64,000 nucleotides of DNA from Verrucomicrobiia bacterium (GCA_035495615.1 DATJFP010000088.1:41763-105762), one strand, 5' to 3'. Positions 27,201-58,251 are shown, counted from the first letter of the stretch. Made by a program: numbers and translations. The notes: generated from the letters alone by a model not told the origin.

Positions 27201-30200
27201 CGCGGCTTCGTCCGCCGCCTGCCTTTCCTTGGTCGATCGGGCCATGTACTCGAGCCCGTGCCGGATGGCTTCGATCTTGTCCGCGGCTTTGGGATGGATC
27301 GGAATTCCCTCGTCGCGGGCCGTTTCCTCGAACTCCTTGATGCCGGCCTCGATCGCGGTCTTCGCGTCCTCGATGGCCTGCAGGTGCTCGGGATAATCTT
27401 CCTCGTCGAGTTCCATGTCTTCATCTTCGATCAAGGCCTTGTGCTCGGCCAGAAGCTTGTTGTACGGCTTCACCGCTTTTTCCATCAGGATCTGTGTAAC
27501 CTCGCGCACCCGTCCTTTTTTAACTTCCGCTTCCTTTTGCTTGGCCACGCCGATGTTGCGGTGGATCTGCTCACGCGTCGTCCTGATCTCGTCGATGCGC
27601 GCGGTCAGAGGATGGTCCGGCTGCTCGAGGCGCGGCAGCTTCGCGAAGATCGTCTGCGACTCCTCGGCAAGCTCGAAAAGGGCGATCATGTTGTTGACCG
27701 CATCGGCCGCTTCGTTCACCGCGGCCCGCTCATGATCTTCGATGGGCTCCGCGGTTCCTTCCTTGTCGCCGAGCGCCCGCGCCAGGTTGTAATAAGTCTC
27801 GTAATGTTCGTAGAGGGTCGCGCGCTGGTCGGCCGCTTCCGCCGTATCCGCGAAAAGCTGCGGCATAAAACCCTGCTCGCGCAGCGCCTGCAGGTACATG
27901 GCTTCGAGGCCGGGGACCTGGGCTTCCATGGCGCGCAGATCCCGCACTTTGATGAACCACATGGCATAGAGTTCCGAAAAGAGGAAGTTCCCGCCCAGGC
28001 GGTGCGACGAAGTCTCGGCGCGCAATTCAGGGCGGGCAATGCCGCTGACCGCGCCGGGGTCGATGCTTTTGAGCTTTCCGTCGTCGTCCAGGATGAGATT
28101 GCGCCAGACGTCATCGATATCCACGATGCGTTTGTCGTTTCTCAGTTTGACGGTCGCGGCAAGAGCGCGGTGGCGGCGCACGTCCGCCTGGAAGACGGCC
28201 TGGAAAACCGCGGTCTTCTGAGCGGGTTCGATATCCCCGCTCGCGGCGACAGCCTGGAGGATGCGGGCCATGTCCGGGCCCTTGTAATCCTGTTCCACGG
28301 TAAGCTTGCCCGGTTCCTCGGAAACCTGCCGCGTCGGAACGAAGAATTCGCCCAGCACGGCCTGGTTGGCGAGACTGAGGCGCGCCTTCGTGTCGTCGAG
28401 GCTGACGGCCTCGTATTCTTTGGTCACTTTCGTCGGATGGGCTTCGTCGTCGGCGCTCAGCTTGGCGTGGAACCCGGACTTGATGCTGACCGGCAAGGTC
28501 GCTGCCACCTGACGGAGGATGGCCACGACTTCCGCGGGAAGCGGCGCGTTGTTGCCGCGCTCTTCCTTGATGGCATTGTTCAGCGCGCCTTCGATCTTAT
28601 TGAGGACGTTTTCCGCGTGCTCGAGTTTCGGCCGGTCGCCTTTCACGAGATTGGCGTAGGCAATGACGAGTTCGCGCAGGCGCCGGGCCGAGAGGTCGCG
28701 TCCCGTGCCTTCCCAGTTTGCGCGGTTTCCATCAAACCGTTCCCGCTGAGGCACGGACAAACGCGCGAGCATGCGTGCCTGCTGGCGGAGGATGTCGTCG
28801 ATGTCGAGGAAGGCCTGCAGGAATTCGTCCAGATAGGTGCGCAGCGCGGCTTCGTCTTTGGCCGCAATGACGGCCTGAACGTTGGCCAATTTGTTCCGTT
28901 CGCTCCAGACCGCGCCCGCGGCTTCCAGGCGCGACTGCAGGACATCCGGAAAGTTCTTCTTTTCGACTTCGATCTTTTTCTTTCCCGCGAGTTCCTTGAG
29001 CTCGGCCGCCATGTCGCCCAGGATTTTTTTATTTTCCGTCTTGTCCAGGTCCGCGAGGATGCCGTCGACGTCGGCCGGCGTCGCGGCCGAGGTGATGCGG
29101 TCGGTGAATTGGCGTACCAGCGCGGTGCGGGTGTCGTCCTCCTGCCGTTTCTGGTCTTCGAGAGCGCGCTGGCGGGCCTGGGCCTGCTGCACGAGGCGCT
29201 CCTCGACTTCCGCCGGAAGCTTGGCCGCCCGGATTTCTTTGAGCACGGCGGTGATGTTGTCGAGCGTCGCGCCTTCGATTTTCTTTTCCAGGTTTTTGGT
29301 CTTACGGTGGATGTTGATTTCTTCTTCCAGTTCCTGCTGGGCGCCTGTCGAAAGCGCGCTCTTGCGGACTTCGTCCAGGATGCCGTCCAGCACCGCGAGA
29401 TTGGCCACGGTCACGGCCGCGATGCGGCCGCGGAAGGACGCGATCAGCGCGTCCTCGGCCTGCAGTGTTTCGTCAGCGGCCGCGCTCAGCCCGATGCCGG
29501 TTTCTTCGGCCACTACGCCCGGAGGAGGCGTGCTCGGACGGCTCGGCGTCGGCGGAGTGACGCCTGCCGCGCGCGCGAGGTATTCATCGACGACGCTTTC
29601 CAGCGTGGCCTGCTTTCTCCAAACCCGCACAAGACCGTCCTTAATGAATTCTTTCCAGAGATCATGGCCCAGCTTGCGGCGCATGAAGTCCATGAGGACG
29701 GGCCCGTAATGATATTCCGCGGATTCCGGCGCACCCTCTTCGATTTTTCTCTTCAATTTCGTGGCGTGGAGGCTGCGCTTCTGCTCTGACAGCGCGGGGA
29801 AGGTCACGTCCAGCACGACATTGCCGGTCGCCGTTTCCCGCTGAAGGGTTTTGAGTGCCGCATAGACGAAATCGTTGGCCAGCGCTTCCGTGGCATAAAG
29901 CTGGTCCGGAGTGCGCGGGCCGGTCAGCGTGCGGTGCATTTCGTTGAAGATCGCATGGCCGACTTCCTCGATGTGGCGGACAAAGATGTCGGTCAAGCTC
30001 AGGTTCGCGATGTTGAGCGTGATGATGGTCTTCAGCGTCCCCTCTTCGCGGACCATGCGGGCACGGGCCTTCTTGTCTCCGTCATTGCTGGAACGGATGA
30101 CGATCCGGGTGATGGGAACCCGGGTCTTGGGCCCGTAATATTCGCTGCTGAAGCGCGTCAGAAAATCGTTGAGGGTGTAGAGCTTGCCCTTGTAGGGGTA

Positions 30201-33200: not shown

Positions 33201-36200
33201 GAGAAGCGAGAGCACTTCCTGGATTTTGGCCAGCCGGATATCCTCTTCCGTCGGGGCCGCGGCCGATGGAGGCGCCACTTTTCCGGGCGTCTGCAGTCCC
33301 ACGAAAGAAACGTCATCGTCGTCGGCAAAAGGATTCGCGCGTTCCAGCCTCTTTTCCAACCCGTCTCCGGGGATCGAGGAGGCGTCCCGCGCGGCCTTGG
33401 CCAGCGCGTGCACGGTCTGATCCAAAGGCAGGGTGCGCGTCATCTCAACCAGTTCTTCCATGCCCGGGATCGGCATCACGCGGCCCACGACCGAGATCGT
33501 GGCCAGCGGCTTGCCGGGTTTGTTGGCGAGTGTCGTCGTCCGTATCGTGCTCAAACCGGCAGGCGTGCTCTTGTCGCCGCCGTCGGAATAAACCAGCGCC
33601 CGCGTTCCGGGAGGCACGTCCACCTGGGTGCGGTTGTTGCTGCCCAGCAGAAGAGCATCTCCGGAAAGGAATTCGTCGTGCTTGTGGCGGACGCCCAGAT
33701 AAAGCTCCAGGTTCTCCTGCGTTGTGAAGCGCGGAAGCGTCTCGCCGAAATCTTTGGCCTCCACCTTGCCGTCCGGGAGAATGAAAATGCCGGTGCTGTC
33801 GCCGTAATCGAGACCCAAGCCCGCGTATTTTTTCTTATCCGGATCGGCAATCTGCCGTGTTTCCGGGTATTCCCAGACAAGACGGATCGTGAGGGTGGTC
33901 ATGGCCCGCGAATGAATCTGCCGGGCCCGTTTGGCCTCGGACAAAGCTTCATTGGCCGCATCGACCGCGTCCTCGAGGACTTTCAAGGCGGCCTCGGGCG
34001 TTTGCGCCGCGAGCAGCTTTTCCCGGGTGGCTTCCTTCTCGATGGCGGCGATCACGATAAGCGCGGCCTGCCGCCCGTCCGGCTGCCCTCCGGCACCGTC
34101 CGCCACCGCGATGAGGCCCCGGTCCGGCAGGTTGAGAATGGCGTCTTCGTTGTTCTGGTCCGCCAGCGGTTTATTGATGCGGTACACTGCGGGAGCCGTG
34201 TAAGCCCAGGTCGTAAAACCCGTAGCCTTGCCTTCGATAGCTCTCTTTTTCGCGTCAAAATCATCTCTTACCCAAGGCCTGATCCGCTCCGGAAGCGCTT
34301 CGATCTGGCCTTCGACCGCCGCCAACTCCCCCGCGCTTGAATTCAGCGTCAGCGCGTCGACTGCCGCCCGCACCGGCATGTAACGGCGCCGGTCTTCCTG
34401 GATGCGCTGGGTAATCTGCAGCTTCTTGGCATCGGCCGCGCGGCCGATCTCGTCTTCGAAGCGCTGATAAACGCGCGGCGTGGTTTCTTCTTTGGCGCTC
34501 TCGACGTTTTCGTCGACGATGGCGATGCTGAGGATGTTGATGTCCGCCTTCTGCAAGTCCTGGATAAATTGCCGGAGCCGCTGCTCATCCCTCTTATCCT
34601 TGGCCGCGATCTTTTCTTTCTTGGCCCGTATGGCTTCCTGGACGTCGGCACGCTGCCGCAGCCGCGCATCCGTCAAAATCTTGGCCGCTTCCCCTTCGAC
34701 ATCGGCTTCCGCGACGGTTCTGGGGTCCAGGGCTGTGATCTTGCTAATGGCTTCGAACGCCGCCTCCTCATCCGCGGCAACCCGCGTCCGGATGGCCTCG
34801 TTCTTTTCGGCGAGCCGGGCCTGTTGCAGCCGGGCCGCGGCGTCCTGCGCGCCGTTCAGCCGGTTTTCCAGCGGTGTGACGTCCGAAAACGCATTGAGTG
34901 GGGTCAGCGCATCGACTTTGGGCGTAATGTCCGCTACGATCAGGCCCACGACTTCCCCGATTTCCCGCTTCAAAGCCGCCTGCAGTTCCGTGTCTTCCTT
35001 AATCTGGTCCGCGCGGCTGAGCAGCGCTTCGGCATCCGAAACCTGCGCCGCGGCAACATTCTTGCGGAGGTCTCCCAGGAGCCTGCGTACGTCCGCCGCG
35101 ATGTCGTTGTTCGAGCGCGAACGATCCCCGATCGACTGCCGAGCGGCTTCGAATTCTTCTTTGAGCGATTCTTTGAGATCTTCCCGGTCCGCGACACGCG
35201 CTTCCTGAGCCTGCACGTCCGATTCGTTTTTGACCCGGCGGAGCTGGATCTTGATATCCGCCATCAGGTCGCGGTCGAGGCTCTCGCGCTGCGTGATGGC
35301 CTCTTCCTTGGCTTCCACCTCGCGCAAAAGACGCGCCGCCCGTTCGCCCCGGGCGCCGGTCACGCGCGCCCGCAAGCCCTGCGCGGCGGTAAGGTCGCTG
35401 CGGTCAGTGAGCTGCGCGATCTGCGGTTCGATCGCATCCATGATCTTTTCCGCGGCCGCGTCGATCTCGCCTTTCACCTTGTCTCTCAGTACGGCGCCCG
35501 CGATCTGATCCGCCTGGTCGGCAAGGTCCTGCATGGTGCGGACATAAACGCCGTCGATCGCGGCCGTTTCCGTAATTCTCAGGCGCACCGCGGCGGCGGC
35601 CGTGTCATCGGCCTGGATGCGGCGCTGGATCGCGCCGCTGATGTCATTGGCTTTTTGCGCGAGGCGGTTGGCGCGCTCGGTCTTCGCATTGACGAAACGG
35701 CGGCGCTGCGCCTCGACTTCCTCTTCGGTGCTGAGTTCGCCGAGCCGGTCGAGAGACTCGTCGATGTGAGCGGCGACAAGCACCATTTTGCGTTCGATGA
35801 GCGCCTCGAGAGGGCCGCGCATTTTCGCGTTCTTCAAGCCGGCCAGTTTTTCCGTGACGGCTTCGACGTCCTGCAGCGCGGCCGTTTCCGTGTCAAGGCC
35901 CTGAAGCGCCCCGCGCACGTCCTGGTCGATCGCGCCGTCCTGCCGGATCCGTTCCTGGATCGCGGTTCTTTTCTGCGTGGCAAGATCAAACAGCTCGGGA
36001 ACCGATTCCGCTTCCTGCATCCGCGCTTCCTGCGCGGCAACGTCCTTTTCTTCGTTCAATTCCGTGAGCGCTTCCAGTTTTCCCCGGATGTCGGCCGCTA
36101 CAAGCCCGCGCGACTGCTCGATCGCGGCAACAGTCCTGTCGCGAATGGCCACGGTCACGATTCCCTGCGCCCGGGCTTTCGCGGTCTCAAACGGCTTCAC

Positions 36201-39200
36201 CGTTGCCGTGGCCGGCGTTTTGGGAAGGCCGCCGAGGATTTCCCGCGCGGTTTCTTCGTCGCGGCGTCCGCGGTCGCGGATGCGCGTCTTGATGTCGGCG
36301 GCGAAACCTCCGATGCGCTGACGCTGCCGTTCTTCGGGCAGCCGCGCCACGGCCGCATCGACGTCCGCTTCCGTGCTCTGTTCGTTGGCGGCGAGCGCGT
36401 TCATGGCCGCCTGCGCGTCCCGGATCAGTCTCGAATCTTCTTCTTCACGTTCCCGCAGGAAATCGCGGCGCGCCAAAGCCGCTTGCCGCAATCCTTCAAC
36501 TTCGGGCGATTTGGCGTTCTTCAGCCGGTCTTCCTGGGCGCGGATGTCGTTGACGTCTTCCGCGGCGGCGATTCGTTCCCGGATGTTCTGCACCACGGCA
36601 ACGCGCTTGGCCTCGATCTGCGGCCTCGCTCCTGTTTTCAAATCCTCATAAGGTACGGCTTCTGCCCGCTCGGCATAAGATTCGATGACTCCGAGCGGCA
36701 CGCCGTCTACGCCAAAGCCCGTCACGTCGCCGACCAGCCGTTCCATTGTTCGCTGGTAGTAATCGTAAATCTGGGCTTCCATCTGAGTCCGCTTGGCCTC
36801 GAGCCGCGGGAACACGAAAAGAAGGAGCGCGTGAAGGCTGGGGGTCGATTCGGTTTGAGCCAGGAGGTTCTTTTTCGCGCGCGCGTAGGCGGTTTGTTCC
36901 GCCGCGGCTCCGGCCTCCTGGTATTCTTTCAGCGCGCGGACGAATTCGTAGGAACTCTTCTGGTCCAGGGGCGGCATTTCCGTGGAAGTCAGCATGGCCG
37001 CGGCTTCGGGCACGATCTGGTCCGGCTTGTCGAGCTGTGCCGCCATGGCCGAGATGAGCCGCGATTCGTACTCGGCGAGGGCGGCTTCAGTCGTGCTGAG
37101 GCGGGCGCCGATGCGCGATTGAAGTTCCGAGACAAGAGGCGCGGGACTGTCGGCCGTTCCGGCAAGCGCCGCGGCTTCCTGGCCCAGGCCCTGGAGGCTC
37201 TGGTAATTTTCGTGCGGATCGCCGCGGGTCTGCTCGAGACGCTGGGCAATGTCGCGGAACTTGATCGTGTTATCGACCTGCGGCGTACGAACTTCGCCGG
37301 GCAGCACTTCGAAAAAGGCAATGACCGCCAGGATGGCGTCGAAATTCGCGGCCACATCCCCCATGTGGGGCTGCAGCGCGCCTTGCAGGAGGGTTTGTCC
37401 GCGCGCGGCAATGATGCCCGGAATCTGGGGCCTGTCCGCTTCGGAGGCCGCGCCGCGCTGCGCGTACGTGTCTACCAGGATCTGCGGGCTCATGGCCTGC
37501 GCCGTCGTGGTCTGGATCAGTTGAAACGCCCGGGCCAGCTTCAGGACGTTCAGGGCGTCGTTATTTTCAGGAGAAAATTTCGTGGTGTCCCACGTGATGG
37601 CGGCCAGACGCTCGAAGGAGTCCGCGCGGTTGATTTGCTTGGCCAGCCGGCCGAAGCGGGATTTTTCCGTGCCGCGCCATTTGATCACTCCCCAAATGGC
37701 TCCGGCTCCGGCCGCGAGACCCGCTGCGATTAAAGCGGGCCCGGTAAGATTGGGCGCGTTGACCGTGACGCCTCCTGCTTGTTCCGCCAAATACTGATAA
37801 AGTTCGTAAACGCCGTAAACCGCCACGCCGGCGCCGGTGAGAACTCCCAGGCCGAGCAGAATGCGGTTTCTCCAGACGCGGGCCGTCTCTTCCCGTCTTT
37901 CCAGTTCGGTCTTTCTCGCGCGCGCGCCGTCCTGCTCCGCCGCGGGCAGATCATTGATCACAGCTTCGGTAATATCGGCCGACCGCCGGGCTGCTGCGAC
38001 GGCTGCGCGCGCATCCTCGATCTTCTTGAGAGCGTCGCGCTTTTCCCGGGCCTGGTCCCGCTCGCCGTCGTTTTCGAGATCCGCGAGCACCGCGTCGGTA
38101 ATCTGCGCCGACTGCGTGGCCGTGGCGACCGTACTTCTCGCGGCTGCAAGGCGCGCCGCCTGGATCGCCGTCCTCTTGCCTTCCGCGACTCCGGCGAGCC
38201 TCGCCGCTTCCGTCGTCTGAGCTCCTTCCAGACGCGCCGTCTGCGCGGCCACCTCTTCGATCGTGCTGGCGTCGGTCAATGCCGTCAACTTGCCTTCGAT
38301 GTCCGCCACGATTTGCGTGACTTTGCCGCGGATTTCATCTTCCACCGCCCCGCGAGCGGCCCCGTCTTTGATGCCGGCCGCCAGAGGCAGAAGAGCTTCG
38401 GCGTCGCTTATTTTCGCGGCAGCGGCATCGATCTGTCCGAGCTGTGTCCGGATATCGCGCGCTTTATCCTCGTCACCCCGCAGCCGGTCGCGAATCTGTT
38501 CCACGGCGGCATCCGCCTGGTCTTTCACCTGGATGCGGAGACGTTCCTCCAGACCGTTCACAATGGCGGCGAGCTGATCTTCCGTGGCCGTTTCCAAATC
38601 CAGGGCTCCGATCGCGCGCTTGGCCTCAGCGACCGCGCGGCCGTCCGCTTCGATTCTCGCCTCGATGGCTGCGCGTTTGGCTTCCGCCAATTCCCGCAGC
38701 CGCGCTGCTTCGGGAGTCTTGGCATCTTCGAGGCGTGCGGTCTGCGTCACCACCGATTCGGGAGTGTTGAGTTCGGTGAGGGCATTCAATTTGCTTTCGA
38801 TGTCGGCGACGATCTGCCCGACTTTGCCGTTGATCTGGCTTTCGACACTGCCGCGAAGCGTCGCGTTCTGGATCTGCGCGGCGCGCGTCAGCAGGGCTTC
38901 CGCGTTTTCGATCGTGGCGCTTTCAGGCTGAACCTGCCCGAGATCCGAAAGGATGGCGCCGGCTTTTTCGTTGTCGCTGCGGCCGCGCTCGCGGATCGCG
39001 GCAATCTTGGCATCCGCTTCGTCGCGCACATGATCACGCAGGCGGGCCGGCAGCCCGCTGCGAATGGCTTCAACGGCGTCTTCCGCCGCCGTGTTCACAT
39101 CAATGTCGTCGATCTGGCGCTTGGCTTCGACTATAGCCCGGGCATCGGCCCCGAGCCTGTCGCTGATCGCCTGTTTTTTCTGTCCCGCCAGATCGCGCAG

Positions 39201-42200
39201 GCGTCCGGCATCGGCAGCGGCGGCGCCTTCGAGCCGCGCAGCCTGGGCATCCGGGTCAGCCAGCGCATTCAGTTCCGTCATGGCGTTCAACTTGCCTTCG
39301 ATGTCCGCGACAATCGCGGTAACGCGGGCGTTGATTTCGCCCTCGATCGCGCTCCTCAAGGTTTCTCCCTTGATCTGTTTCGCCCGCGGCAACAAGGCTT
39401 CGGCGGCGTGCACGTTGGCATCGCCCGGAAGGAGGGCCGCAAGATCGCCGCGGATCGCTACTGCTTTTTCATCGTCGCTTCTCAAACGTTCGCGGATGGC
39501 CGAGAGCGCCGCCGCGACATCTTCCGCAATCTGGTCACGCACGCGTTCGGGCACGCGCGTCTCGATGGCTTGGACCTGGGCAGGCGTCGCGGTTTCGGGA
39601 TCGAGCTGGCCGAGGTCCTGTTTGGCCGCCGTGACGGCTTCGCGGTCCGCGGCGATGCGCCTCGTGATGGCGTCCATCTTGCCGCGCGCCAGATCGCGAA
39701 GGCCTGCGGCTTCCGAGGTAAGCGCGTCTTCGAGGCGCTGGACCTGCGTGTCGACTTCGGCCGCCGCGCTCAACTCGGTCAAGGCTTCCAGTTTTCCGCG
39801 GATGTTTTGGACGATCCCGCCCACTTTCGCGTTGATTTCATCCCGCACGGTTTCTCTCAGAGCGGGGTTCTTGATGTCCGCGGTCTCCGTCAAAAGGGCT
39901 TCGGCTTCTTTGACAGCGGCCGTTTCAACCGGCAGCAGTCCAAGCCGCTCACGAATGCTTTGCGCTTTTTGTCCGTCGGTTTCGATGCGCTGGCGGATCG
40001 CAAGCAGGGCCGCCTGCGCTTCGGTGCTCACCTGGCCGCGCAGACGTTCAGCAAGACCGTTCACGACGGCTTCGACATCGGTGGCCGCGGCTTCATTTAT
40101 ATTAAGGCTCGTGATCGCCTGCTTCGCCTGGCTTACGGCGAGCTCGTCCGCCCGGATCCTTCTCTCGATGGCGGCCGATTTTTCTTCCGCAAGCGTGCGC
40201 AGCCGGCCCGCTTCGGACGTGGCCGCGTCTTCCAGCCTCGGCGTAATCGCCGTCACGCTGGCGGGCTCGTTCTGGTCCGTCACGGCATTCAATTTCCCTT
40301 CGATGTCCGCAACGATCGCTTTGACTTTCTGATTGATCTCGCCTTCGACCGCGGAGCGCAGCGTTCCGTCTTTGATCTGCCCGGCGCGGGTCAGCAGCGC
40401 TTCCGCGTCTTTGATCGCCGCCGTATTGGCAATCGCTCCGAGGTCACCCCGGATGGCCGCCGCCTTTTCGGTATCGCCCTGCGTGCGTTCGCGAATCGTG
40501 GCGGCCGCGGCATCCGCTTCGGCCTTGACCTGATCACGCACCCGTTCGGGCACGCGATTGCGAAGGGCTTCTACGTCGTCCACCGCGGCCGTGTCCAGAT
40601 TGAGCGCCGCGATCGCCTGCTTGGCTTCGCGCACGGCGCGTTCGTCCGCGTCGATCCGGTTTTGAATGGCCCTGGATTTCTGCTCCGCCAACTCCCGCAG
40701 CCGGGCCGCTTCCGGCGTCACCGCGCCTTCAAGCCGCGACGTCTGGGCCGTCACTTCTTGGGCCGTGCTGAGTTCCGTCAAGGGCGTCAGCTTCGTTTCG
40801 ATGTCCGCGGCGATCTGGCCGGTCTTGGCATTGATCTCGCCTTCCACGGCCGGACGCAGCACCGCATCTTTGATCTGCGCCGCGCGGGGAAGCAGCGCTT
40901 CCGAATCCGTGAGCTTGGCCGTCGCGGCGGCGATACCCTGCAGGTCCGAACGAATCGCCGCGGCTTTTTCTCCGTCGCCCCGCGTGCGGTCGCGGATCGT
41001 GGCAATGGCCGCGTCCGCTTCGGTCTTCACCTGCTCGCGCACCCGCTGGGGCACCCCATTGCGGAGGGCTTCCACTTCGTCCACCGTGGCCGTGTCCAGA
41101 TTGAGCGCCGCGATCGCCTGCCTGGCGCCGCTCACTGCGAGCGTGTCGGATTCGCCGCGGCCGGAGATGGCCTGAGACTTTTGGCCTGCCAGCTCCCGCA
41201 GCCGGGCCGCTTCCGGCGTCACCGCGCCTTCGAGCCGCGCCGTCTGGGCCGTCACCTGGTCGGCCGTGCTTTCGTCCGTCAAGGCGTTCAACTTTCCTTC
41301 GATGTCCGCGACGATCCGCGTCACGACCGCGTTGATTTCGCCTTCCACGGTCGTCCGCGCGGTCTGGTCCTGAATCTTTGCGGCGCGCTCGAGCAGCGCT
41401 TCCGCGTCTTTGATGTTCGCGGCCGCCGGCACGATCCGTCCGAGATCCGCGGCAAGGGGCCCGCGAAGCGCCGTGTCTTCTTCGCCCCGCTTTAAGTCAT
41501 CCCGCCGCCGTTGAGCCCCTGCCAAAATCACGTCGTAGGCGCTTCTTTCATCCCCGGCGAACGTCACCCCCGTCACAAGCCGTTCCGCTTCATCAAGTTT
41601 CTGCTGCGCCTCGGCCGCTGTGTCCGCAGCCTGGGCTGCGGCAAGCAATCCGACCAGCGAAACAACATTGCCTCGGCGCGTTACCTGCTCTTGTTCGGCT
41701 CGCTTCAAGTCGCGCTGCTTTACGCGCAGGGCTTCGAGGGCTTCGGTATAACGGGCTTCTTCCTGGCCGGCAAATGTGACCTGGCTGCGCAGTGCCGTGA
41801 CGGTCGCGATCGTGGCTTCCGCCTGCGTCGACGAGGTCGGCTCCACGGCCAAAAGAGCCATCAGGTGCCGGACTTTTCCCGAACGTTCGGCTTCCGCATC
41901 TTCGTCCGTCTTGAGACGCTGCGCGGCTTCGCGTGCAAGCCCGAGCGCATCGGTGTACTGCCGCTGTTCATTCCCCTGAAATTGGACGCGGCCTGCAAGG
42001 TCTTCGGCTTCTCGGATCATTTCCTCGGCTTCGGATGCCGTTGCGGCGCGCTGCGCGCCTGTCAGCAGGCTCTGGATGCGGCGCACCGAGGCTTCGCGGT
42101 CCGCGACAAGTGCCCGATGCTCGGCGATGAGTCCGGCCAGCGCGCGCGTGCGAGTGCTTTCAGCGGCGCCTTCCAGCCTTTTTTCCTGGAGGTCGAGGAC

Positions 42201-45200
42201 GCCTGTGTCATAAGTGCTCGTGACCTGGGTCCGGATATTGGATTCGATGGCAAGCGCGGTTTGTTCGACTTCCCCTTCGAGCGTCGTGCGCAGGCCTTGA
42301 TTGCGGACGCGCGCCACGTCCTTCAGCACGGCTTCCGCTTCCGCCAGCGTGGCCGTCGCCGCTTTCACATTCAAATTCGCGAGCGCGTCACGTACGGTCC
42401 TGGCCAGGGTTTCTTCCTGCGCCACGGCTTCCTGGATGGCTTTCTTTTTCTGTCCCGCCAGCGCCTGGAGCCACGGCTGGGCCGCGGGATTGAAACGCCT
42501 TTCCTGCGCCTCGACCGCGCTGACGGCCGCGGTTTCGTCCATCGCGGTCAGCGTTTCCTGGATGTTGTCAATGAGGCTGCCGATCACGCGGCCGACTTCG
42601 CCCTGCCACGCCTGACGCACGCCTTTGTTCTGGATCTGATTGACCCGCTGATAAAGCATTTCCGCGTCGCTGATCTGGGCAGTCGTAAGGTCGAGGCCCT
42701 CGATCGCTTCCATCACGCCTACGGCAATCTCATCGTCTTTGCGGATCCTGTCGCGGATGGCCTGGCGCACGGTCTCGGCTTCTGCGGCAATGCGCGTCTG
42801 GAGAGGTTCCCGCAAAGTCGCGGCCACGGCGTTCACGTCTTCTTCCTTCGCGGTCTTCGGATCGATCTTGCTCAGTTTCCCCAGAACGTCCTGCACGCTC
42901 GCCGCGTCTTCAGTTTCCTGCAGGGCCATGAGATCCAGCACTTCCACGACCTGTTTGTCCCCGCGCACGGCGTCTTGGAGCCGCAGCGGAAGCGCAGTGA
43001 TCGCGGCTTCCACGTCCTGGGAGGCCGCTTGCCCGATCACCATGCTCGTGATGGCGGCGATCGTCTGCGTTTTCATCGCTTCGTCTTTCTGCTCACGGGC
43101 CGTGATCGCGCGGGTCATCTCCTCCACCTTGCTGCTCAGCCTTTTGAGGACGTCTTCCGGAAGGCGGAGGGCCATATCTTCGGGAAGACGGAACATGACG
43201 GCGTTGACCTGAGGCACGGTAGAGGTCTCGACCGGAAGAGCGCCGATCTCGGCAACCAATCCGTCGATAAAGGCGGAGTCGCTCGCCGCCTGGAAACGAT
43301 CATGGACCGCCTTGACGCCGGCCGTGAGATCCGTGCGCAGATTTCCGCGGTAGCCGCGGGTCCGTTCGCTCTGAGCGGCAAGCTCGTCTTCATTTTTGAC
43401 TCCGGCCAGACGCTCGACGACGTTCTGCGCCACCTTCTCCTGCTGCGCGGCCGCGGCCTGTTCGATCTGGTCCCGGTAAGCGCGGCCAGGCGCAAATCCC
43501 AGCAGCCGCAGCCCCTGTTGGACAAAAGCCGAGACGTCGCGCACCGACACCTCGCGCGCGTCGATTTCCCCGATTTGCCGGACAAGGTCTTCCACGGCAC
43601 TATCCATTCTCTGCCGGCTCCGCTGTTCGCGGCTTTCGGCAAGGTCACGCTGTCTTTTCTGTTCACGGGCCTGACGCGCCTGGTCGACCGGCACGGCTTC
43701 GAGTTGTTCGACCGCGGTTTCGCGGGCCTGTTCTTCCGGCTGTGGCACGGGCTTGGGCTGTTCTTCGGCCACTTCGGCCGCGGGAACTGACTGGACCACG
43801 AGCGAATACAGATGCGCAATGTCTTTGTATTCCTGGAGGACGAGCTTGATGACTTCCGTACGCGTCTGCACGGCCATCTCGAAAAGCGCCTGCTTTCTGC
43901 CTTGCGCGGTTTCATCCGCATCGGTCGTCGACTGCTGTTTCAGCGCCTCGAAAAGCGCGCGGATGAGCGCCGGGAGCTGGGCGAGTTTTTCCTGGACGGC
44001 CAGAAGCTGGCGCGCGGTCTGTTCGCTGGACAATTCTTCTTCGCTGGCAAGGCGTAAGGTTTCCAGGGTGTCGCGAAGGCTGTGGAGTCCCTGCACGAAG
44101 TTCGCGCCGTCCTGATAGCCTTCGCTCAGCTTCGAATAAATATCGCGGTAGGCCACACCGATGGCCTGGACCGCGTTGTCTTGGGCCGCCCGCAATTTCT
44201 CATCCAGGCTTCCGAGCGCTTCATCGAGCTGCTGGATGCGTTCGGTGAAACGCACGCGCAGCGCCTCGGCCCGGGTCTGGATTTCAGTGCCTTCATAATA
44301 AGATTCCCGTGACAAGGCAGCCAGCTGCTCCATGACCACGTCCCGAAGCCGCCACAGGGTGTACTGTTCGTTTTCGATGACCCCGGCCGCTTCACGCACC
44401 AGCGGGAATTGCCCCGCGGGCTGCTGCAGCTGGGCCTCAAGCTCTGATATATAGGAAGCGGTGTGCCCGAGCTCCTGGTCCGTTTCGCGTTCGATTGTGT
44501 TCAAACGGCGCGTCAGCACGCCCATGTTATATTCCGCGATTTGCCGGATCTTCTCGTCCGCGGCGGCGCGGACGCGGTCTTTGAGATTCGCGGGTAGGAG
44601 ATCGACCAGCCGGTTGACTTCCGCGGGCGTGCCGACCGGAACCGAGACTTTCGTCTCGATGGCGGCCGTGACTTTTTGCACCTGCAGGTCGTCGAGCTTG
44701 CCCAGGGAAGCGGCGCCGCGCGCAATAACCGCGGCAAGCGCCTGCCTTCTGGATTTCAAAAATTCAATTTCGCTTCGCACGCCGGGATCCACGGCGTCCG
44801 GATTTTTTCCGAAGGCATCTACCTTCGCGTCGAACTGCGCGAGCGTCCTATCCGCTTCCTCCCGGATTTTCCCGATCTGGAGCCGGATCGTGTCGAAGAT
44901 GCTAGTCGTTTCTTCGGTGAGGTTCGGGACGTTCATGAGGCTTTCGGCGACTTCGAGGCTGCGGATCAGCCTCGTCTCTTCCGTTTCGTAGAAAGCGCGG
45001 GCTGCGGTGACTTCGCCCTTCAAGGCCAAAACGCGTTTTTCCGTGAGTTGGATTTTACGCGTCAGTTCCCGGATCCCGGCCTGGGCGTCTTCGGTCACCC
45101 TCTTCAGGGAATCGTCGAGCTCGCGGAGAAGGTCTTCGGGTTCTTCCGTCGTCCTCAATTCCGCGCGCAGGCCGACAGCAAGCTGGGGCATCTGGCGGGC

Positions 45201-48200
45201 ATTCCCATTCAAGCTTGCGAGAAGCTGGCTGCGTCCTTCGCTTCCGAGACCCGCAAAATAGGCATCGGGCCGGCCGAGCAGTTCGCCGATCAGGGCCAGG
45301 ATTTTTCGGACCGCTCCCGCCGACGGAGTCTGCTTGAGTCCCGCCAGCGTCTGTCCCGCTTCCGCGATCGCTTTCTTGGCATCGACCGCCGCGGGCTGCT
45401 GCACGGGTTGGCGGGCCCGCTCGAGCGCACGCGCGATGCCGGGAAGATCGCGGATTTCAGGAGGCAGGGCTTCGAGAGTCTTGGCAATTTCGGCGACTGG
45501 TTCCGGGACCATCTCCGGATCGAGCTCGGGCGTCAGCGAAACATCGAGGGCATGCTGGATATTATTGTAGAGCAGATTCCCTTCTGTCCCCGTGGCCTTG
45601 TCTTCGTAAGAGAGCTTCTTAATAATGTAGTCGCGCAGGTCCGCCATTGCGAGAGCGATCGTGCCGGCCTGAATCTGGCGCGCGGCAAACAGAATCGCGT
45701 GATGGTCATACGTAATGCCCGTCGTATCCGAAACCTTGGGCATGTTCGCGGCGCGGTCTTCTTTCCAAAGGTCCTCATTGCTCATGGCCGCTTCCGGGAA
45801 GGCCTTGTTATGCTGGCGCAGCGATGCTTCCTCAAGCAAATCCAGGACGGCGTTCCGCTGCTGGCCGCCGAGCGCGTTCCAAGCCGCTTCGTCCGACCGG
45901 CGGATCAATTCGATCTGGTCGCGCAGCGCCTGCTGCAACTGCCCGGCCGCCTCTTCCCGCTGGATTTGGGAAGTCCACGCCTGCGGCAATTTATCGAGGA
46001 TCCAACGCTGTACCTGGACCGAATAATCCGTGACTTTCTTTTCCGTGGCCGTGCGCGGAACGGTGAGGCTCATCGGGTCTCCCGGCTGGACTTGCAGCCG
46101 GTCCAGATGCATCAGGAAATGAATGAGCGCGTTCTTTTCCTGCTTCGTCCACGACGTAAGCTCGGAGTTCCACCGCTGAAGCCCCATGAACCGGTTTCTC
46201 GAGAGATCGTAGCGGCGCTTTTCGATTTCCGGACGCGGGCGCTCCACAGCGCCTTCCTGGAACCGCAATTCGCCTTTCAACGCGGCCTGGCCGAGGTCGG
46301 TAACGACGACGCTGATCTGGCCGGGCTGCACCTTGCCGAGCGCTTCCGTGACGGCCGGATCCCTGACCAAGTGCGCATCCACGGGCCCGGAATAATAGTT
46401 GCTGTCGCCGAGCTCCAGCCGGTTCAAACGGTCGGGCTGTTTGAAAAGCCCGCGGGCTTCCGAATCCTGGCTGCGAAGCACCTTCGCAAAAAGGCGCAGC
46501 GCCTGTGTCTTGTCTTCGCCCGTCTGCCACAAAAACTGGTTCGGACCTTTCCGCTCCAGCACGCCGCCGAAACGGTTGACGATCGCGAGGAGACCCTGCT
46601 GGTATTCCGCAGGAATTTCCGCGGCGATTTTCTTACGCATTTCCTCGAGCGCCTGCTCAGGAGTATTGCTTTCGAAGATGCTTTCGACGATCGTCAGGGT
46701 CATGAGGAAAAAGGCGTGCGCGTATTCAGGATCGCGGGCGATGAAATCGGCGGCTTCCTGGCGGAGACCCAGGCTCGCCGCATTCAGAAATTCGCGCGCC
46801 TTGGGCGATTTTTCGATGACCATGTGCCAGGCCGCGAGCTGGAAGCGCGGGTCGCTCAGGCTTTGCTGCTGGGGCGGGAGGAAAGTCTCCACCAGCCGCG
46901 TTTCGAGCGGCATCGGCTTCTGGCTGAGGGCGTCCACGTAAAGCTGCGTTTCCTTGGTGTCGTCGATCTGGCCGTGGATCCGCGGCGCGATCACAAGGAA
47001 AGAATAATCGTTTTCCTTGAGATAGGCCTCGATGCCGGGCGTATGGAAACCACCGGTAATGATCGCCATGATCTGCTGCTTCCCGGATTCCATTTCCCCG
47101 ACCGCTCTCTCGATCAGGATCTTGTCGCGTTTGAGAGCTGCGGAATAATAACGCTCCACGCGGCCAAGATCCTGATCAAGGATCTCCAAAAGGGACGGCA
47201 ATCCATTGGAGAACTGATGTTGCTTTAAGAGCGGTACGAGGAAATTACGGAATGTCTCTGCCTTGAATTCGTCGCGGTATGTGTAGAAAAAGTCTGCGTC
47301 CTGCTTGGTCAGGGTGAAATTGAACATCTTCTGGTAAATCTCGAAAATGCGGAACAGCCGGTCCAGCTGCACTTCCTCTTCGTTGCGGAACAGCTTGTTC
47401 TTGATGTCCCGCTCGAGCGCCTCGATCTCGCTGAAGATCGCGACGTCGATCGAATCGTAGAGCCTCATATATTTAAGGTAGCGCAGGACCTCGTCGTACT
47501 TCTGGGCCAGCTCTTCCTGCCCGGCCCCCTGCGTCGACTGCATGTTCTGGATTTCGACCTGGAGATAGCCGTAATAGTCCGCGCGCTTCATCTTCTTCAT
47601 GCGGAACTGGACCGTGTTGGTCAGAAACTCGGAGAGTTTTTCACGCGTGAGGACGTTTTTCAGGTCGTTGATCAGGTCTTCGATGCTTTTTTCGGCTTTG
47701 TCGAAATCGATTTCTTTTTCGAGATCGATGAGCGAGAGAAGCGAGTGCATGCCCGGATAATCGTAAAGGGCGATGTTTTCTTTGCGGGCCGTTTCCACGA
47801 GATGGCGGACGTAACTCACGAGTTCGTTGCCGCCGGACTGGAAGGCCTGCCGGTAATGCAGCATGTCCCGCAGATCATCGGAGAAAACGAACCGGGAAAC
47901 ATCGTCCATCAGCTTTCCGAGGTCCGCCAGAACTTTTTCGTCTCGGTCTTTGTATTGCAGGGCGTCGAGATAAGCGCGCCTGTTTTCTTCATAGATCTGG
48001 CGGTCTTCCACGCCGTACAGGTTCAGTTCCGGCCGGTCGACGATCGCGAGGTATTCGGGCCCCGTCAAACGGGCTTCTTTCAAAAAGTAATCCGCGACAT
48101 TTTTGCGGGCTTCTTTGTTCGGAAAAAACGAAAAGAGTTCGGTGAAGAGTTCGCCCTCGGCGCCTTCCAGGTTGATCAGTTTAAGACCGTAATTTTTGGC

Positions 48201-48530: not shown

Positions 48531-48778
48531 GAGGATTTGCCGTCCCTATGTTTTGCTGGCCAAATTGACGTGCTAACTTACCGACTACTTAAAAAATTGA
48601 TTTATATTGTTATATTTAAACTATATATCAAAGTTTTTAAACTCACAATAGTATAGACCGAAATAATTGTAAGTTAAATACTTGATAAAAGTTTTTATGA
48701 AGTAAGTATAGCCGCCACTTTCTAAATTGTCAATCGGAACTTTAGGCAGAAAGGGAGTTTAGCCTGGTTTTAAGGAAA

Positions 48779-48800
48779 GCCCCTACAATAAGGGGTTTAT
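48779..48800 (-). terminator. Weak hairpin immediately after the response-regulator stop codon; possible terminator or attenuator before the giant gene
   Basis: cccct-acaata-agggg (48780-48795) forms a 5-bp GC stem with a 6-nt loop. The minus-strand RNA is then followed by CUUUCCUU. The stem is short and the U-tract imperfect. Confidence 0.2.
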
Positions 48801-49228
48801 TCTTCGGGATCGTCTTCCGGGGTCTTCTTCGGGGCGAGGTTATCTTCGATGCATTTGACCAGGTCCTTGGTACTGACCGGCTTAGAAAGGGCAGGTTTAA
48901 TGGTAAACGGCCGCCCCCCTACCACTCCGCCGAAGGCTTCGCTTTGCCCCTTGCCCACGGTAGCGGTAAGAAAAACGATGGGGGTGTTATTGATCTTTTC
49001 CGTTTCTCGGATTTCGATGGCCACCTCCGTACCACGCTTGTCCGGCATAATCACGTCCAGAAGAATGAGGTCGGGTTTGAAGTCTTTGGCCGCCTGCAGC
49101 CCCTGGGCGCCTTTGGTCTCCACGCGGACCTCGAACTTTCCGAGGGCTTCCAGGTTTTTTTTGATCATGCTTGCGAATTTTTCTTCATCGTCGATAACAA
49201 GGATTTTTTTCTTTGCCGGGTCTGCCAT
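48797..49228 (-). CDS. Single-domain response regulator (CheY-like receiver)
   Basis: 143-aa ORF: [18 protein letters not shown]...PDLILLDVIMPDKRGTEVA...PIVFLTA...K. It has the acidic pair, a phospho-acceptor Asp in LLDVIMP, and the conserved T and K. Confidence 0.85.
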   Translation of the reverse strand: MADPAKKKILVIDDEEKFASMIKKNLEALGKFEVRVETKGAQGLQAAKDFKPDLILLDVIMPDKRGTEVAIEIRETEKINNTPIVFLTATVGKGQSEAFGGVVGGRPFTIKPALSKPVSTKDLVKCIEDNLAPKKTPEDDPEE

Positions 49229-49239
49229 GATTCCTCCTG

Positions 49240-50802
49240 TTAAAATTTCAGCGTGACTTTGGCGCCGTTTTTCTTTCGGTTTTCGATTTTTATTTCCCCT
49301 TTGTGCATTTCGACGATGCTTCGAACGACCGAAAGGCCCAAACCGGTGCCGCCGAGTCCGCGGCGCGTCGTAATGAACGGGTCAAAAATCTTGTCTAGAA
49401 TCTCCGCAGGGATGCCCGTTCCTGTATCTTCTATTTCGACCACGACGCGAAATTCTCCAGCAGGAGGATCCAGGCGACGCGTCGTCAAAATAAGGTCGCC
49501 TCCCTGAGGCATCGCGTGAATGGCATTGGAGAACAGGTTAACAAAAACCTGCATCATCCTGTTTTTGTCGAGCGGCAGCGGAGAAACGCCCGAATCGTAT
49601 TTCTTGGAAGTTTGGACTTTATTATTCATCAGCAGGTGCTTGACCAGATTCAGCGATTCATCCATGACTGAATGCAAATCCACGTTTTCCATCATGGGTT
49701 CCACGGGAGCGGCAAAATCCAGGAGACCTTTGATGACAGCGTCGGCCCGGCGCACCGCGTCGATCATGTCCTGCAGGACGCTTGCCTTTTCCTGATCTGC
49801 ATCACCCATCGTCTGCTGTAAATATTCCGCGCCTTGAAGCAGGATCGCCAGGGGGTTTTTGACCTCATGAGCCACGCCCGCGGCTAAGCGGCCCACCGAT
49901 TGCAATTTCTCCGCCTGGATGAGCTGGTCCTGGGTGGAACGCAGACGTTCATTGACCCGTTTCAATTCCATCAGGGCTTCGATGAGCTTCTGCTCGTTCT
50001 TTAATTGCTCCTGAATGGCGTCTTTGAGCTTTTCCTCGACCTTGACCTGGTCCGAGATCTCCCGAAAAAAAAGCATCAGGCCGGCAAGCGTGTTGTTGTC
50101 AAACACCGGATGGACAACGAAGTTCACCGTCAAGGTCCCGCCCTTTTTGTCATAAAAAGAGACCTGATCGGCGGCGCGCAGTTGTCCGTCGCGGAGGGTT
50201 TCCAACATTTCTTTCCCTGGATTCAAAGCCGGCGGTGAAAGGCCTGTATCCGGCATCAGGATCTCCTCGAGGCTGTGGCCGAGAATCTCCTTCACGCTCC
50301 GTCCGAGCATCCGGCACGCAGAAGCATTCGTTTGAACAGCCCTGCCGTTCAGGTCCGTCTCCACGATTCCTTCGGTCACGGCATTCACGATCAAAGCCTT
50401 CCTCAGCTGGCTGCTCAGGAGCGCGATCTGGAGATCTTTCTTGGAAGCGGCATTCTTAAGCCAATGCGCCAGAAGCTCCGCGTCCAGGCTCGCCTTGGGA
50501 AGATAATCGGCAAATCCCATCTGCAGGGCCTGGGCGGCCGCCCGCTCATCATTGTTGCGGATGAGCGCAAGAACAGGGATTTGTTTGGACTCGGAAGAGA
50601 ATTTTTCAACGCGATCGGGACGTCCGGAAAAAAAATCGAAATTGACCAGAATGATGGAAGGCAAAAAACCGCGGATCTTCGACAAGCCCTCTTCGAGGTC
50701 CGCCGCTCTATAAATCTGCAGGCTCGCTATTTTCTGCGATTCCAGCAGCCCTTCCAAAAAGTCGGCATCCTGGGCATTGTTTTCGATGAGAAGGACCTTC
50801 AT
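49240..50802 (-). CDS. Hybrid sensor histidine kinase: N-terminal atypical receiver domain, PAS, HisKA, HATPase_c
   Basis: 520-aa ORF. N-terminus MKVLLIENNAQDADFLEG...SIILVNFDFF is receiver-like, but the acidic pair is replaced by EN and Asn sits at the expected Asp position. H-box is AAGVAHEVKNPL. ATP-lid motifs are EIEDTGTGIP and GLGGTGLGLSVV. Confidence 0.85.
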   Translation of the reverse strand: MKVLLIENNAQDADFLEGLLESQKIASLQIYRAADLEEGLSKIRGFLPSIILVNFDFFSGRPDRVEKFSSESKQIPVLALIRNNDERAAAQALQMGFADYLPKASLDAELLAHWLKNAASKKDLQIALLSSQLRKALIVNAVTEGIVETDLNGRAVQTNASACRMLGRSVKEILGHSLEEILMPDTGLSPPALNPGKEMLETLRDGQLRAADQVSFYDKKGGTLTVNFVVHPVFDNNTLAGLMLFFREISDQVKVEEKLKDAIQEQLKNEQKLIEALMELKRVNERLRSTQDQLIQAEKLQSVGRLAAGVAHEVKNPLAILLQGAEYLQQTMGDADQEKASVLQDMIDAVRRADAVIKGLLDFAAPVEPMMENVDLHSVMDESLNLVKHLLMNNKVQTSKKYDSGVSPLPLDKNRMMQVFVNLFSNAIHAMPQGGDLILTTRRLDPPAGEFRVVVEIEDTGTGIPAEILDKIFDPFITTRRGLGGTGLGLSVVRSIVEMHKGEIKIENRKKNGAKVTLKF

Positions 50803-50877
50803 GACGACACACCGGTCTTCGGGAATAAACCAGATTCAGGAAGGAAATGTTGGGGCGCGGGACGTAGGAAGCGAGGA

Positions 50878-51243: not shown

Positions 51244-51326
51244 TCATCCTCAATGCCTTCGCCGGGAGAGGGCCCGATGTCGGCCCCTAAAATATCGGCC
51301 TCTCTCCAGGGAAAATTAAGCGAAGA

Positions 51327-51402: not shown

Positions 51403-51411
51403 ATTGAATTT

Positions 51412-52257: not shown

Positions 52258-52267
52258 GCCGCTGCTT

Positions 52268-54073: not shown

Positions 54074-54116
54074 CGGACCTCCGGAAGATACTGTTGCTGG
54101 CCGCGGACTGGCGGGG

Positions 54117-58242: not shown

Positions 58243-58251
58243 AGCGGAGCT

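Follow-up and report, generated by a model that had tools for sequence, protein, structure and literature searches.

An array of diverged 167-residue helical repeats within a giant gene of a putative Omnitrophota genome

A run of tandem repeats in the 64,000-nucleotide stretch of DNA analysed here (the window) raises the question of what protein carries it, how it arose and what role it may play. A preliminary description likened the repeats to modules of giant adhesins or coiled-coil proteins, and that they belong to a giant protein is borne out by the minus-strand reading frame around them, which continues without a stop for 16,181 codons, from window position 48545 down to 3, and runs past the window edge. 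A frame of at least this length is the main fact about the locus and is absent from that description. Its GC1/GC2/GC3 values show a coding pattern, and we assume that it is translated as one polypeptide, of which the array makes up ∼7%. The frame contains no cysteine, an absence common among secreted proteins. Pfam searches with all 16,181 residues returned three weak matches only (PP2C_2, ARMT1-like and the P-loop-bearing cytidylate kinase N-terminus), all later in the protein. A plus-strand ORF at 37779-41495 was rejected as the array's gene, being an Arg-rich antisense shadow of the minus-strand coding.

3-48530, minus strand: giant ORF, visible part; ATG at 48530, at least 16,176 aa from the Met, ending at the window edge

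Translated in rows of 167 residues, the minus strand shows seven consecutive in-frame copies between 38148 and 41705, followed by a stub beyond which similarity ends.

41205-41705, minus strand: unit 1 (aa 2281-2447), well conserved in its C-terminal half only; HMM and alignment
40704-41204, minus strand: unit 2 (aa 2448-2614, 167 aa), the AlphaFold2 input; HMM and alignment
40206-40703, minus strand: unit 3 (aa 2615-2780, 166 aa); alignment and divergence
39705-40205, minus strand: unit 4 (aa 2781-2947); HMM and alignment
39204-39704, minus strand: unit 5 (aa 2948-3114); HMM and alignment
38703-39203, minus strand: unit 6 (aa 3115-3281); HMM and alignment
38202-38702, minus strand: unit 7 (aa 3282-3448); HMM and alignment
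38148-38201, minus strand: eighth-unit stub of 18 aa (RLAGVAEGKRTAIQAARL); translation and HMM

Six units are 167 residues long and unit 3 is 166 (501 and 498 nt), repeat families of 5–6 copies at 38197-41444 have start-to-start spacings of 501, 501, 1002, 498 and 501 nt, and nucleotide self-identity is 55% at lag 501 versus 24–31% at neighbouring lags. An HMM built on the units scores each of them at E 1e-61 to 1e-77. The in-frame arrangement, the near-exact 501-bp periodicity, the richness in Ala, Glu and Arg (20.5%, 9.9% and 9.2%) and the consensus motifs reported earlier all agree with our alignment, whose consensus includes VEGEINAKVxxIVADIEGKLNALTEL, RLRELA and DAEALLxRAxQIKD. The earlier count of about seven repeats needs qualification: seven units are recovered by translation and HMM, but the partial conservation of unit 1 reduces the well-kept array to ∼6.6 units (38148-41450), and the family extends beyond seven. 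Tandem Repeats Finder reported no array, solely because the longest period it handles is 500. Tryptophan is absent from the array (0%) and other aromatic residues almost so. Across the seven units 22 columns are invariant, eight of them polar or charged (R16, R71, E102, R117, K138, T143, R157 and E159) and found mainly in the last two thirds of the unit.

An iterated HMM extends the family to ∼20 full or partial copies between residues 1283 and 6521 of the same ORF, with degenerate members on both sides of the main array.

44421-44699, minus strand: isolated partial copy (aa 1283-1375), E 4e-17
42156-43340, minus strand: upstream degenerate array (aa 1736-2130), E 1e-13 to 4e-53
34227-36755, minus strand: downstream degenerate array (aa 3931-4773), E 2e-18 to 1e-46
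28983-29228, minus strand: isolated partial copy (aa 6440-6521), E 4e-16

The upstream array (25% identity to unit 2) comprises two copies of the N part, a full unit and a copy of the C part, and the downstream array holds ∼7 full or partial units (32–35% identity to unit 2). The 167-residue unit is itself built from ∼56-residue sub-repeats, in each of which a turn joins a long helix to a short one (hhalign score 34.7, whereas 30 column shuffles gave 12.4 or less).

For a single unit, AlphaFold2 returned a confident all-helical model (pLDDT 91.8, pTM 0.72). The two-unit model (pLDDT 93.3) has a short break between the units, whose relative geometry is uncertain because its pTM is 0.64. With 76% helix and zero strand, the models support the earlier reading of the repeat as strongly helical. 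They speak against a continuous coiled-coil stalk, a heptad helix of at least 100 residues, since DSSP assigns 6–7 helices per unit with loops between, the breaks falling every ∼20–55 residues; three helices are long (31, 37 and 24 residues, 37 being the longest), with extra short helices between them. No homologue of the unit was detectable in searches of 5.8 G and 1.84 G proteins, in genome and metagenome scans, in Pfam or in the PDB, which gives no support to the suggested tie to a known adhesin repeat family, and no related array was found in any collection searched. The sole database or PDB sequence matches were marginal profile matches of positions 82–116 to TPR_12-type helices (∼33 profile positions, E 1e-5 to 0.1, best 1.6e-5). 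Foldseek found no significant match to the modelled unit in the PDB; its non-significant top rows include the rod-like helical-bundle proteins Exo70, alpha-actinin spectrin repeats, PRC1 and SbsC.

Three known architectures can be compared with the array. Spectrin-type rods (spectrin, alpha-actinin, PRC1) are likewise tandem all-alpha units with three long helices each and may serve as a working analogy only, as the unit here has 167 rather than ∼106 residues and extra short helices between the long ones. Spectrin repeats carry a conserved Trp, which the array lacks; ten units gave no Pfam match at E ≤ 1, either to PF00435 or to TPR families, and Foldseek placed 1quu at E 3.2 and TM 0.17. The DAEALLxRAxQIKD segment resembles the EAEPLYQRALxI helix of TPR_12/kinesin-light-chain TPRs, but the period is 56/167 residues rather than 34/42 and the modelled long helices (24–37 residues) are two to three times longer. 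Giant repeat adhesins (RTX/Bap/BIg-type, including the ice-binding adhesin, SiiE and LapA) resemble the present protein in being very long, Cys-free and exported (predicted here) and in having successive repeats of almost equal length, which could determine reach. Their repeats, however, are Ig-like beta-sandwiches, often Ca-binding and nearly identical in DNA, accompanied by T1SS signals, whereas here the repeats are all-alpha and diverged, the signal peptide is of predicted Sec type and a Kyte–Doolittle (KD) scan suggests internal TM segments. The models contain no strand and Pfam no match to BIg, cadherin-like or RTX repeats; the C-terminus lies beyond the window.

What the array is attached to can be judged from the segments that the protein shares with its relatives.

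48435-48530, minus strand: predicted Sec signal peptide (MIDWQTRRAKPWLR) with a 12–14 residue hydrophobic core and VWA followed by DGG; KD scan, heuristic
46596-48434, minus strand: conserved N-terminal head (aa ∼38-650); homology to relatives
20511-22481, minus strand: second conserved module (aa 8689-9345) with a TM cluster at aa 8950-9020; tblastn

An n-h-c pattern with an xWA site followed by D or G recurs in most of 11 relatives, on the same heuristic reading. The head, 51–64% identical to 16 Omnitrophota loci, carries the motifs IHIQDAHA, LEGAEG and GGFHTPGI and conserved H94 and H496 motifs; paired conserved His motifs are a mark of the ChaN/Tiki/TraB superfamily, and ChaN/Tiki proteins are extracytoplasmic. 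It matched PF04187 (ChaN/Tiki) weakly in 4 of 19 homologues (best E 0.0062, below the curated cut-off) and had no sequence match in the PDB. Nearly all of the 49 head homologues are named Omnitrophica/Omnitrophota MAG proteins, and of 14 GTDB Omnitrophota loci, 13 have a head ORF with no stop before the locus end (up to 3,985 aa), while in one it stops at 3,196 aa. The gene order SPOR-PilZ-YajQ-PilZ-patatin-AMP-binding-hydrolase-giant gene is shared with loci L002 and L017. Head homologues and upstream gene order thus indicate that the gene lies in an Omnitrophota genome, and identify it, on sequence grounds, as a member of a syntenic giant-gene family. That family shares only the signal peptide and the ∼650-residue head and, in some members, the second TM-containing module, which is 31–40% identical to L007, L011 and L017, where it follows ∼350 residues after the head. 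Homology to relatives is confined to aa 1-∼650 and aa 8689-9345, and the repeat family lies wholly within the ∼8,000-residue stretch between them, where the three relatives have ∼350 residues. The repeat module is absent from all relatives examined and therefore has no function common to the family.

We put at about even the chances that the array, grown by tandem duplication, forms a spacer or scaffold with a structural role in the exported part of a giant protein anchored in the membrane. The gene would have grown by successive tandem duplications, from a 56-residue motif to a 167-residue triple, then to the array and to dispersed, degenerate arrays. In that exported part, the helical modules that were retained would serve as the structural spacer or scaffold, adding length to the polypeptide between the secreted head at the N-terminus and the segments embedded in the membrane. 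That the repeat segment is exported is deduced from the conserved signal peptide and from the KD scan, in which aa 38–3566 show no hydrophobic segment. We infer the spacer or scaffold function in the knowledge that "spacer" is the default reading for any repeated helical module; the spacer or stalk role proposed originally still appears the most plausible.

Alternatively, the array may be a multivalent binding platform, each unit binding a host or prey surface or partner proteins, so that the array would provide avidity rather than length. We regard this as possible but clearly less probable than a spacer. It is consistent with purifying selection on every copy, with the eight invariant polar or charged positions, which could favour binding over pure structure, with the TPR_12-type similarity and with the published prey-attachment hypothesis for Omnitrophota giant proteins (10.1101/2023.11.21.568195). 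However, the conserved charges could equally form intra-bundle salt bridges, the TPR-like matches are short and fit poorly with 31–37-residue helices, the unit has no homology to any binding domain, and no relative has the module.

The placement of the array relative to the membrane depends on hydrophobic segments, of which the KD scan suggests ∼30 in the giant ORF (heuristic). Three TM-like segments fall in the insert between head and second module.

37662-37847, minus strand: two Gly/Ala-rich hydrophobic segments, a possible TM hairpin (aa 3567-3587 and 3608-3628; KD 1.83 and 1.78)
27105-27167, minus strand: hydrophobic segment, a possible TM anchor (aa 7127-7147); KD scan

Their odd number would leave the second conserved module flipped relative to that of the relatives. 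The hairpin starts 120 residues after the array, and its topology is uncertain because each outer flank holds 5–6 K/R and the 20-residue loop none; by the positive-inside rule, a K/R-free loop would place the array in the cytoplasm. A cytoplasmic scaffold tethered by this hairpin (aa 3567-3628), with the signal peptide uncleaved or TM segments missed, is somewhat less probable again than a binding platform. The weak matches to cytoplasmic-type enzymes later in the protein point the same way, and in a published catalogue 46% of long Omnitrophota proteins are TM-only, their bulk predicted cytoplasmic (10.64898/2026.06.07.730766). Against this stand the canonical layout of the signal peptide, retained with its site in most of the 11 relatives, and the lack of any hydrophobic segment from aa 38 to 3566 in the KD scan. 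The weak ChaN/Tiki-type signal in the head and the Cys-free ORF likewise argue for export.

The divergence among copies bears on whether the repeats are of any use and on their age. Nucleotide identity between copies is 54–71% and amino-acid identity 44–66%; for pairs among units 2–7, third-codon-position identity is 36–60% versus a chance expectation of 31%, dS is 0.66–1.8 (NG86) and dN/dS is 0.22–0.46, reaching 0.63 where unit 1 is one of the pair. The copies are held under purifying selection. The array might nevertheless be selectively neutral filler, a product of runaway internal duplication tolerated by a giant ORF, with no role beyond translatability; the module is lineage-specific, the flanking arrays decay to partial copies and the whole ∼8,000-residue stretch is missing in relatives. 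We judge this unlikely, as dN/dS stays low despite saturated synonymous sites, unit length is held at 167 or 166 residues and the 22 invariant columns have survived across seven old copies. With synonymous sites near saturation, the copies are old duplications and not, as first described, the product of recent amplification or concerted evolution with high conservation at the DNA level. Despite the exact 501-nt register in five of six intervals and the closeness of units 2 and 3 (71% nucleotide and 66% amino-acid identity, dS 0.66), a recent amplification of unstable copy number, or an assembly duplication, is scarcely credible, because an assembler cannot make diverged copies and the longest exact repeat, 39 nt, poses a weak assembly hazard at most.

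The closest published sets are the giant proteins of Omnitrophota (West-Roberts et al. 2023, bioRxiv 10.1101/2023.11.21.568195; Nielsen & Lui 2026, bioRxiv 10.64898/2026.06.07.730766), above all their 'tandem-repeat scaffold' and 'Pfam-dark' subsets. The array lies in one gene of over 16,000 codons, a type that had been described there before, and this gene is a new example of that known oddity. According to these reports, such proteins mostly have signal peptides and/or TM helices (94% of the catalogued proteins of at least 10 kAA), repeats are the rule with nucleotide tandems usually decayed, and Type II/IV secretion or pilus genes flank the giant gene in 13 of 14 cases. The present gene shares the single ORF exceeding 10,000 aa, the signal peptide and scattered TM segments (here predicted by heuristics), the internal protein repeats with decayed nucleotide tandems, a sequence that has almost no counterparts beyond a small conserved portion, and the PilZ genes nearby. 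Unlike the giants described there, it has no SecA_DEAD, C39/S8 peptidase, dockerin, TSP3, glycosyltransferase or methyltransferase in the 16,181 residues visible, and in place of a Pfam repeat it carries an all-alpha module that has no annotation. Neither an Archaeovorin-type giant (glycosyltransferase, methyltransferase, glycosyl hydrolase, peptidase, NUDIX) nor a dockerin-type giant (many dockerin and TSP3 repeats) is recognizable in that visible part, although the C-terminal remainder could differ from it. A ChaN/Tiki-like head goes unmentioned in the sections of both reports consulted. The 15 kb visible upstream contains no T2SS/T4P genes, the downstream side lying beyond the window; this upstream part encodes a histidine kinase (HK), a response regulator (RR), a hydrolase, AMP-binding and patatin proteins, two PilZ, YajQ, two SPOR, a GH1 and a signal peptidase. 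A candidate promoter, recognized by consensus match only, lies in the AT-rich gap that precedes the giant ORF.

48705-48733, minus strand: sigma-70-like promoter match, TTGACA-17-TATACT, 11/12

The repeats lie within a single giant frame that stays open on the minus strand from position 48545 of the window down to position 3 and there runs off the window start, so that its 16,181 codons are a lower bound. At ~63% GC an open frame of such length cannot arise by chance, and its GC1, GC2 and GC3 are of coding type. Translation likely starts at the ATG at 48530, which follows a 266-nt AT-rich gap carrying a strong sigma-70-like promoter match. For this giant protein, by which residues are numbered here, Pfam yields no more than three weak matches across 16,181 residues:

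aa ~4796–4886, minus strand, PP2C_2 (weak)
aa ~14262–14372, minus strand, ARMT1-like (weak)
aa 16089–16125, minus strand, P-loop start of cytidylate kinase (weak)

Cysteine is absent from all 16,181 residues, compared with about 88 expected from the 0.55% found in ten flanking proteins, and related giant ORFs hold 0–3 cysteines in up to ~4,000 aa. Neither West-Roberts et al. 2023 (10.1101/2023.11.21.568195) nor Nielsen & Lui 2026 (10.64898/2026.06.07.730766) was found to mention cysteine. The giant-gene tail (window 1–46000) has 62–66% GC and GC3 of 73–86%, the flanking genes (48500–64000) have 50–55% GC and GC3 of 60–74%, and the related loci show no comparable GC jump between flank and tail. 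Plus-strand 'ORFs' of 750–1,900 aa chained across 165–47228 (e.g. 165–5825, 21558–25697 and 37779–41495) are antisense shadows; the last was rejected as a coding sequence, its translation being Arg-rich nonsense. Such shadows may be mis-called as genes, and gene callers often fragment giant genes of this kind.

The anatomy of the array is secure. The long-period tandem repeat of the preliminary description is confirmed by direct-repeat families of 5–6 copies between 38197 and 41444, with start-to-start spacings of 501, 501, 1002, 498 and 501 nt, and by nucleotide self-identity over 38148–41450, which is 55% at lag 501 versus 24–31% at nearby lags. Tandem Repeats Finder, whose longest period is 500, returned nothing in this region only because the repeat exceeds that limit, and direct-repeat families and protein-level analysis were used instead. 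Wrapping the minus-strand protein (window 38148–41705) at 167 residues per row shows seven units, in line with the reported number of about seven; one is 166 aa long, and their alignment reproduces the reported consensus (VEGEINAKVxxIVADIEGKLNALTEL, RLRELA and DAEALLxRAAQIKD), these motifs being found on the minus strand. Conservation in unit 1 is confined to the C-terminal half, so that the well-kept array amounts to about 6.6 units. The composition is Ala/Glu/Arg-rich as described (A 20.5%, E 9.9%, R 9.2%), with aromatics, His and Met almost nil and Cys zero. The array region makes up about 7% of the giant open frame.

An iterated HMM extends the family to ~20 full or partial copies in the giant protein, all of which fall between its conserved N-terminal head (aa ~38–650) and a second module containing a transmembrane (TM) cluster (aa 8689–9345):

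aa 1283–1375, minus strand, unit copies
aa 1736–2130, minus strand, unit copies
aa 2278–3447, minus strand, unit copies
aa 3931–4773, minus strand, unit copies
aa 6440–6521, minus strand, unit copies

Partial copies match profile positions 1–62 or 57–166, and profile–profile comparison relates unit positions 1–57 to 58–112 (hhalign score 34.7, versus ≤12.4 across 30 column shuffles and 11.3 with reversed sequence). Together these observations imply a hierarchy in which a ~56-aa motif forms a 167-aa triple, the triple a tandem array, and older decaying arrays lie on both sides. Self-BLASTP also finds internal duplications unrelated to the unit at aa 13163–13550 (window 8898–9056 / 8295–8954 region) and aa 5626–5829.

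Outside the giant protein the unit has no significant homologue among 5.8 billion proteins in a word-indexed search, in pattern scans of GTDB genomes and JGI metagenomes, in Pfam or among PDB sequences, and neither unit nor sub-repeat HMMs match any of 16 related Omnitrophota loci. When 1.84 billion representatives were searched exhaustively by profile, three marginal matches emerged (E 1.6e-5 to 3.7e-4), two of them TPR_12-type proteins aligned over only ~33 profile positions. With a ten-unit alignment as input, AlphaFold2 models one unit confidently (mean pLDDT 91.8, pTM 0.72), with helices at 2–32, 41–49, 53–89, 98–102, 105–108, 116–139 and 148–158. A two-unit model built from an alignment of non-overlapping unit pairs (pLDDT 93.3, pTM 0.64) shows this pattern once in each unit, interrupted by five residues where the units join. 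The predicted unit would thus contain a long helix followed by a short one three times over, in keeping with the 56-aa sub-repeat, and its broken helices speak against the coiled-coil protein suggested earlier, no continuous coiled coil being predicted. No Foldseek match in the PDB reached significance (lowest E 2.3 with one unit, 0.12 with two; TM ≤0.39); the top rows, themselves non-significant, are generic helical proteins, some rod-like (Exo70, alpha-actinin spectrin repeats, PRC1 and SbsC). Confidently modelled, and with neither a relative nor a significant PDB fold match detected, this helical module could serve structural work on 'Pfam-dark' giant protein sequence.

The best-supported reading, to which we give an even chance, takes the array for a structural spacer or scaffold of helical modules, located in the exported, lineage-specific portion of a giant protein anchored in the membrane. 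Hierarchical tandem duplication would have generated the array of helical modules, and selection would afterwards have maintained it. The same series of modules could instead act as a multivalent binding platform, which is possible but, in our view, doubtful.

Export is suggested by the N-terminus, which is arranged like a Sec signal peptide: MIDWQTRRAKPWLR, then a hydrophobic core of 12–14 residues, then VWA|DGG. Most of 11 relatives keep both this arrangement and the xWA|D/G site. Hydropathy scanning finds no further hydrophobic segment before aa 3567, from which export of both the head and the main array is predicted. The segments beyond are:

aa 3567–3587 and 3608–3628 (window 37662–37847), minus strand, Gly/Ala-rich hydrophobic pair after the array, predicted TM hairpin
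aa 7127 (window 27105–27167), minus strand, hydrophobic segment
aa 8950–9020, 11359–11640 and 12028–12760, dense hydrophobic clusters

However, the outer flanks of the predicted hairpin are K/R-rich and its loop lacks K/R, so that by the positive-inside rule the arrays would be inside, and the odd number of TM-like segments (three) between head and second module would leave that module inverted relative to its relatives. Both points conflict with a simple signal-peptide-out topology, and at least one of the calls is probably wrong. If the topology is reversed, the array would be a cytoplasmic scaffold, which we regard as unlikely. Directly after the aa 7127 segment is a Pro/Asp/Glu/Leu-rich low-complexity stretch (PDLLDFDPDIMLRPGPIDPNAPPLEFDPSLDELLRPRPIEPPPLPDIML..., aa ~7162–7242, window 26820–27062, minus strand). 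The region at aa 11300–12800 (window 10146–14648, minus strand) has about 20 hydrophobic segments packed closely together and no homologue among the 5.8 billion proteins.

Units 2–7 share 54–71% identity in DNA, which is not the high conservation first reported, and 44–66% in protein; identity at third codon positions is 36–60% among the units, compared with 31% expected from base composition. Nei–Gojobori dS among units is 0.66–1.8, and dN/dS is 0.22–0.46 among units 2–7, rising to 0.63 in pairs with unit 1. Judged from these values, the copies are old duplications under purifying selection. That the array is old and has been kept by selection favours a function for such repeats over noise from assembly or amplification; neutral filler seems improbable. 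Recent amplification or concerted evolution, the reading of the preliminary description, and likewise an assembly artefact are contradicted by the same divergence and are very hard to credit, and the assembly hazard which that description feared is not serious, the longest exact repeat within the array being 39 nt.

The head places the window among relatives. With the first 1,000 aa as query, 49 homologues were found. Almost every one carries the name Candidatus Omnitrophica/Omnitrophota, most are labelled 'partial', and they align solely to the first ~600–700 aa. A scan of GTDB genomes yielded 14 Omnitrophota loci with 53–64% identity over aa 1–~640; the head ORF is open to the end of the fetched DNA in 13 of them (up to 3,985 aa) and stops at 3,196 aa in the other. 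Recurrent head motifs are IHIQDAHA..EAQ, LINLEGAEG, ITGGFHTPGI and SYLVIAP (aa ~38–650, window 46596–48434, minus strand). Weak matches to Pfam PF04187 (ChaN/Tiki superfamily) occur in four of 19 head homologues (best E 0.0062), and the head has no match among PDB sequences. The upstream genes and their counterparts in two metagenomic Omnitrophota loci, L002 and L017, are:

window 48797–63412, minus strand, signal peptidase, GH1, SPOR, SPOR, PilZ, YajQ/DUF520, PilZ, patatin-cNMP, 233-aa unknown, AMP-binding enzyme, S33 hydrolase, PAS histidine kinase and response regulator, then the giant gene
L002 1–9685, conserved upstream order
L017 1–9681, conserved upstream order

The order common to all three is SPOR, PilZ, YajQ, PilZ, patatin-cNMP, AMP-binding enzyme and S33 hydrolase, and the histidine kinase and response regulator recur in L002 as well. 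The upstream region (48797–63412) shows neither T2SS nor pilus genes. From the shared head and gene order, the giant gene of the window belongs to a syntenic family of such genes in Omnitrophota.

Alignment of the giant protein to 16 related loci is confined to aa 1–~650, joined in L017 and two further relatives (L007 and L011) by the second module at 31–40% identity:

window 20511–22481 (aa 8689–9345), second module with TM cluster
L007 13043–14998, second module
L011 6798–8477, second module
L017 12743–14388, second module

In these three relatives the module lies ~350 aa after the head, with no hydrophobic segment between, versus ~8,040 aa in the window. This difference points to a ~8,000-aa lineage-specific stretch in the window lineage, or to loss in the relatives. 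More tentatively, the 56/167-aa module may be a new all-alpha fold family building a long exported rod, at a locus that also captures giant-gene growth: syntenic orthologs would have retained a ChaN/Tiki-like secreted head along with a membrane module, between which the window lineage would have interposed ~8,000 aa, largely by hierarchical tandem duplication. If so, the ortholog series (head-to-module distance ~350 to ~8,040 aa) would amount to a natural experiment in tuning the reach or length of Omnitrophota surface giants. The placement of the repeats, which this syntenic series puts in a ~8,000-aa lineage-specific stretch flanked by the two conserved modules, is relevant to the growth of giant genes.

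Omnitrophota giant genes have already been described, and those accounts present their proteins as repeat-rich, membrane-anchored and mostly unique in sequence (10.1101/2023.11.21.568195; 10.64898/2026.06.07.730766). Of the published types, neither Archaeovorin nor Dockerin fits the visible part of the window's giant protein, which resembles the 'Pfam-dark' proteins forming 15% of the published Omnitrophota catalogue. The array alone is an ordinary feature of an extraordinary, already described protein class; specific to this case are the homologue-free, predicted all-alpha module with its 56/167-aa hierarchy, the clear evidence of its age and constraint, and the placement of the repeats in the putative ~8,000-aa lineage-specific stretch.

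In L002 (10001–18886) and L017 (10001–23894) the ORF that carries the head breaks off and another long ORF, in a different frame, begins with a short overlap (691 aa then 1,160 aa, and 1,297 aa then 7,903 aa, respectively); the split may be genuine, or it may reflect a frameshift or sequencing error. The neighbouring histidine kinase was seen in three metagenome samples (JGI 3300033412 and 3300045391, and the Logan run SRR9009773), solely on contigs of 2–3 kb.
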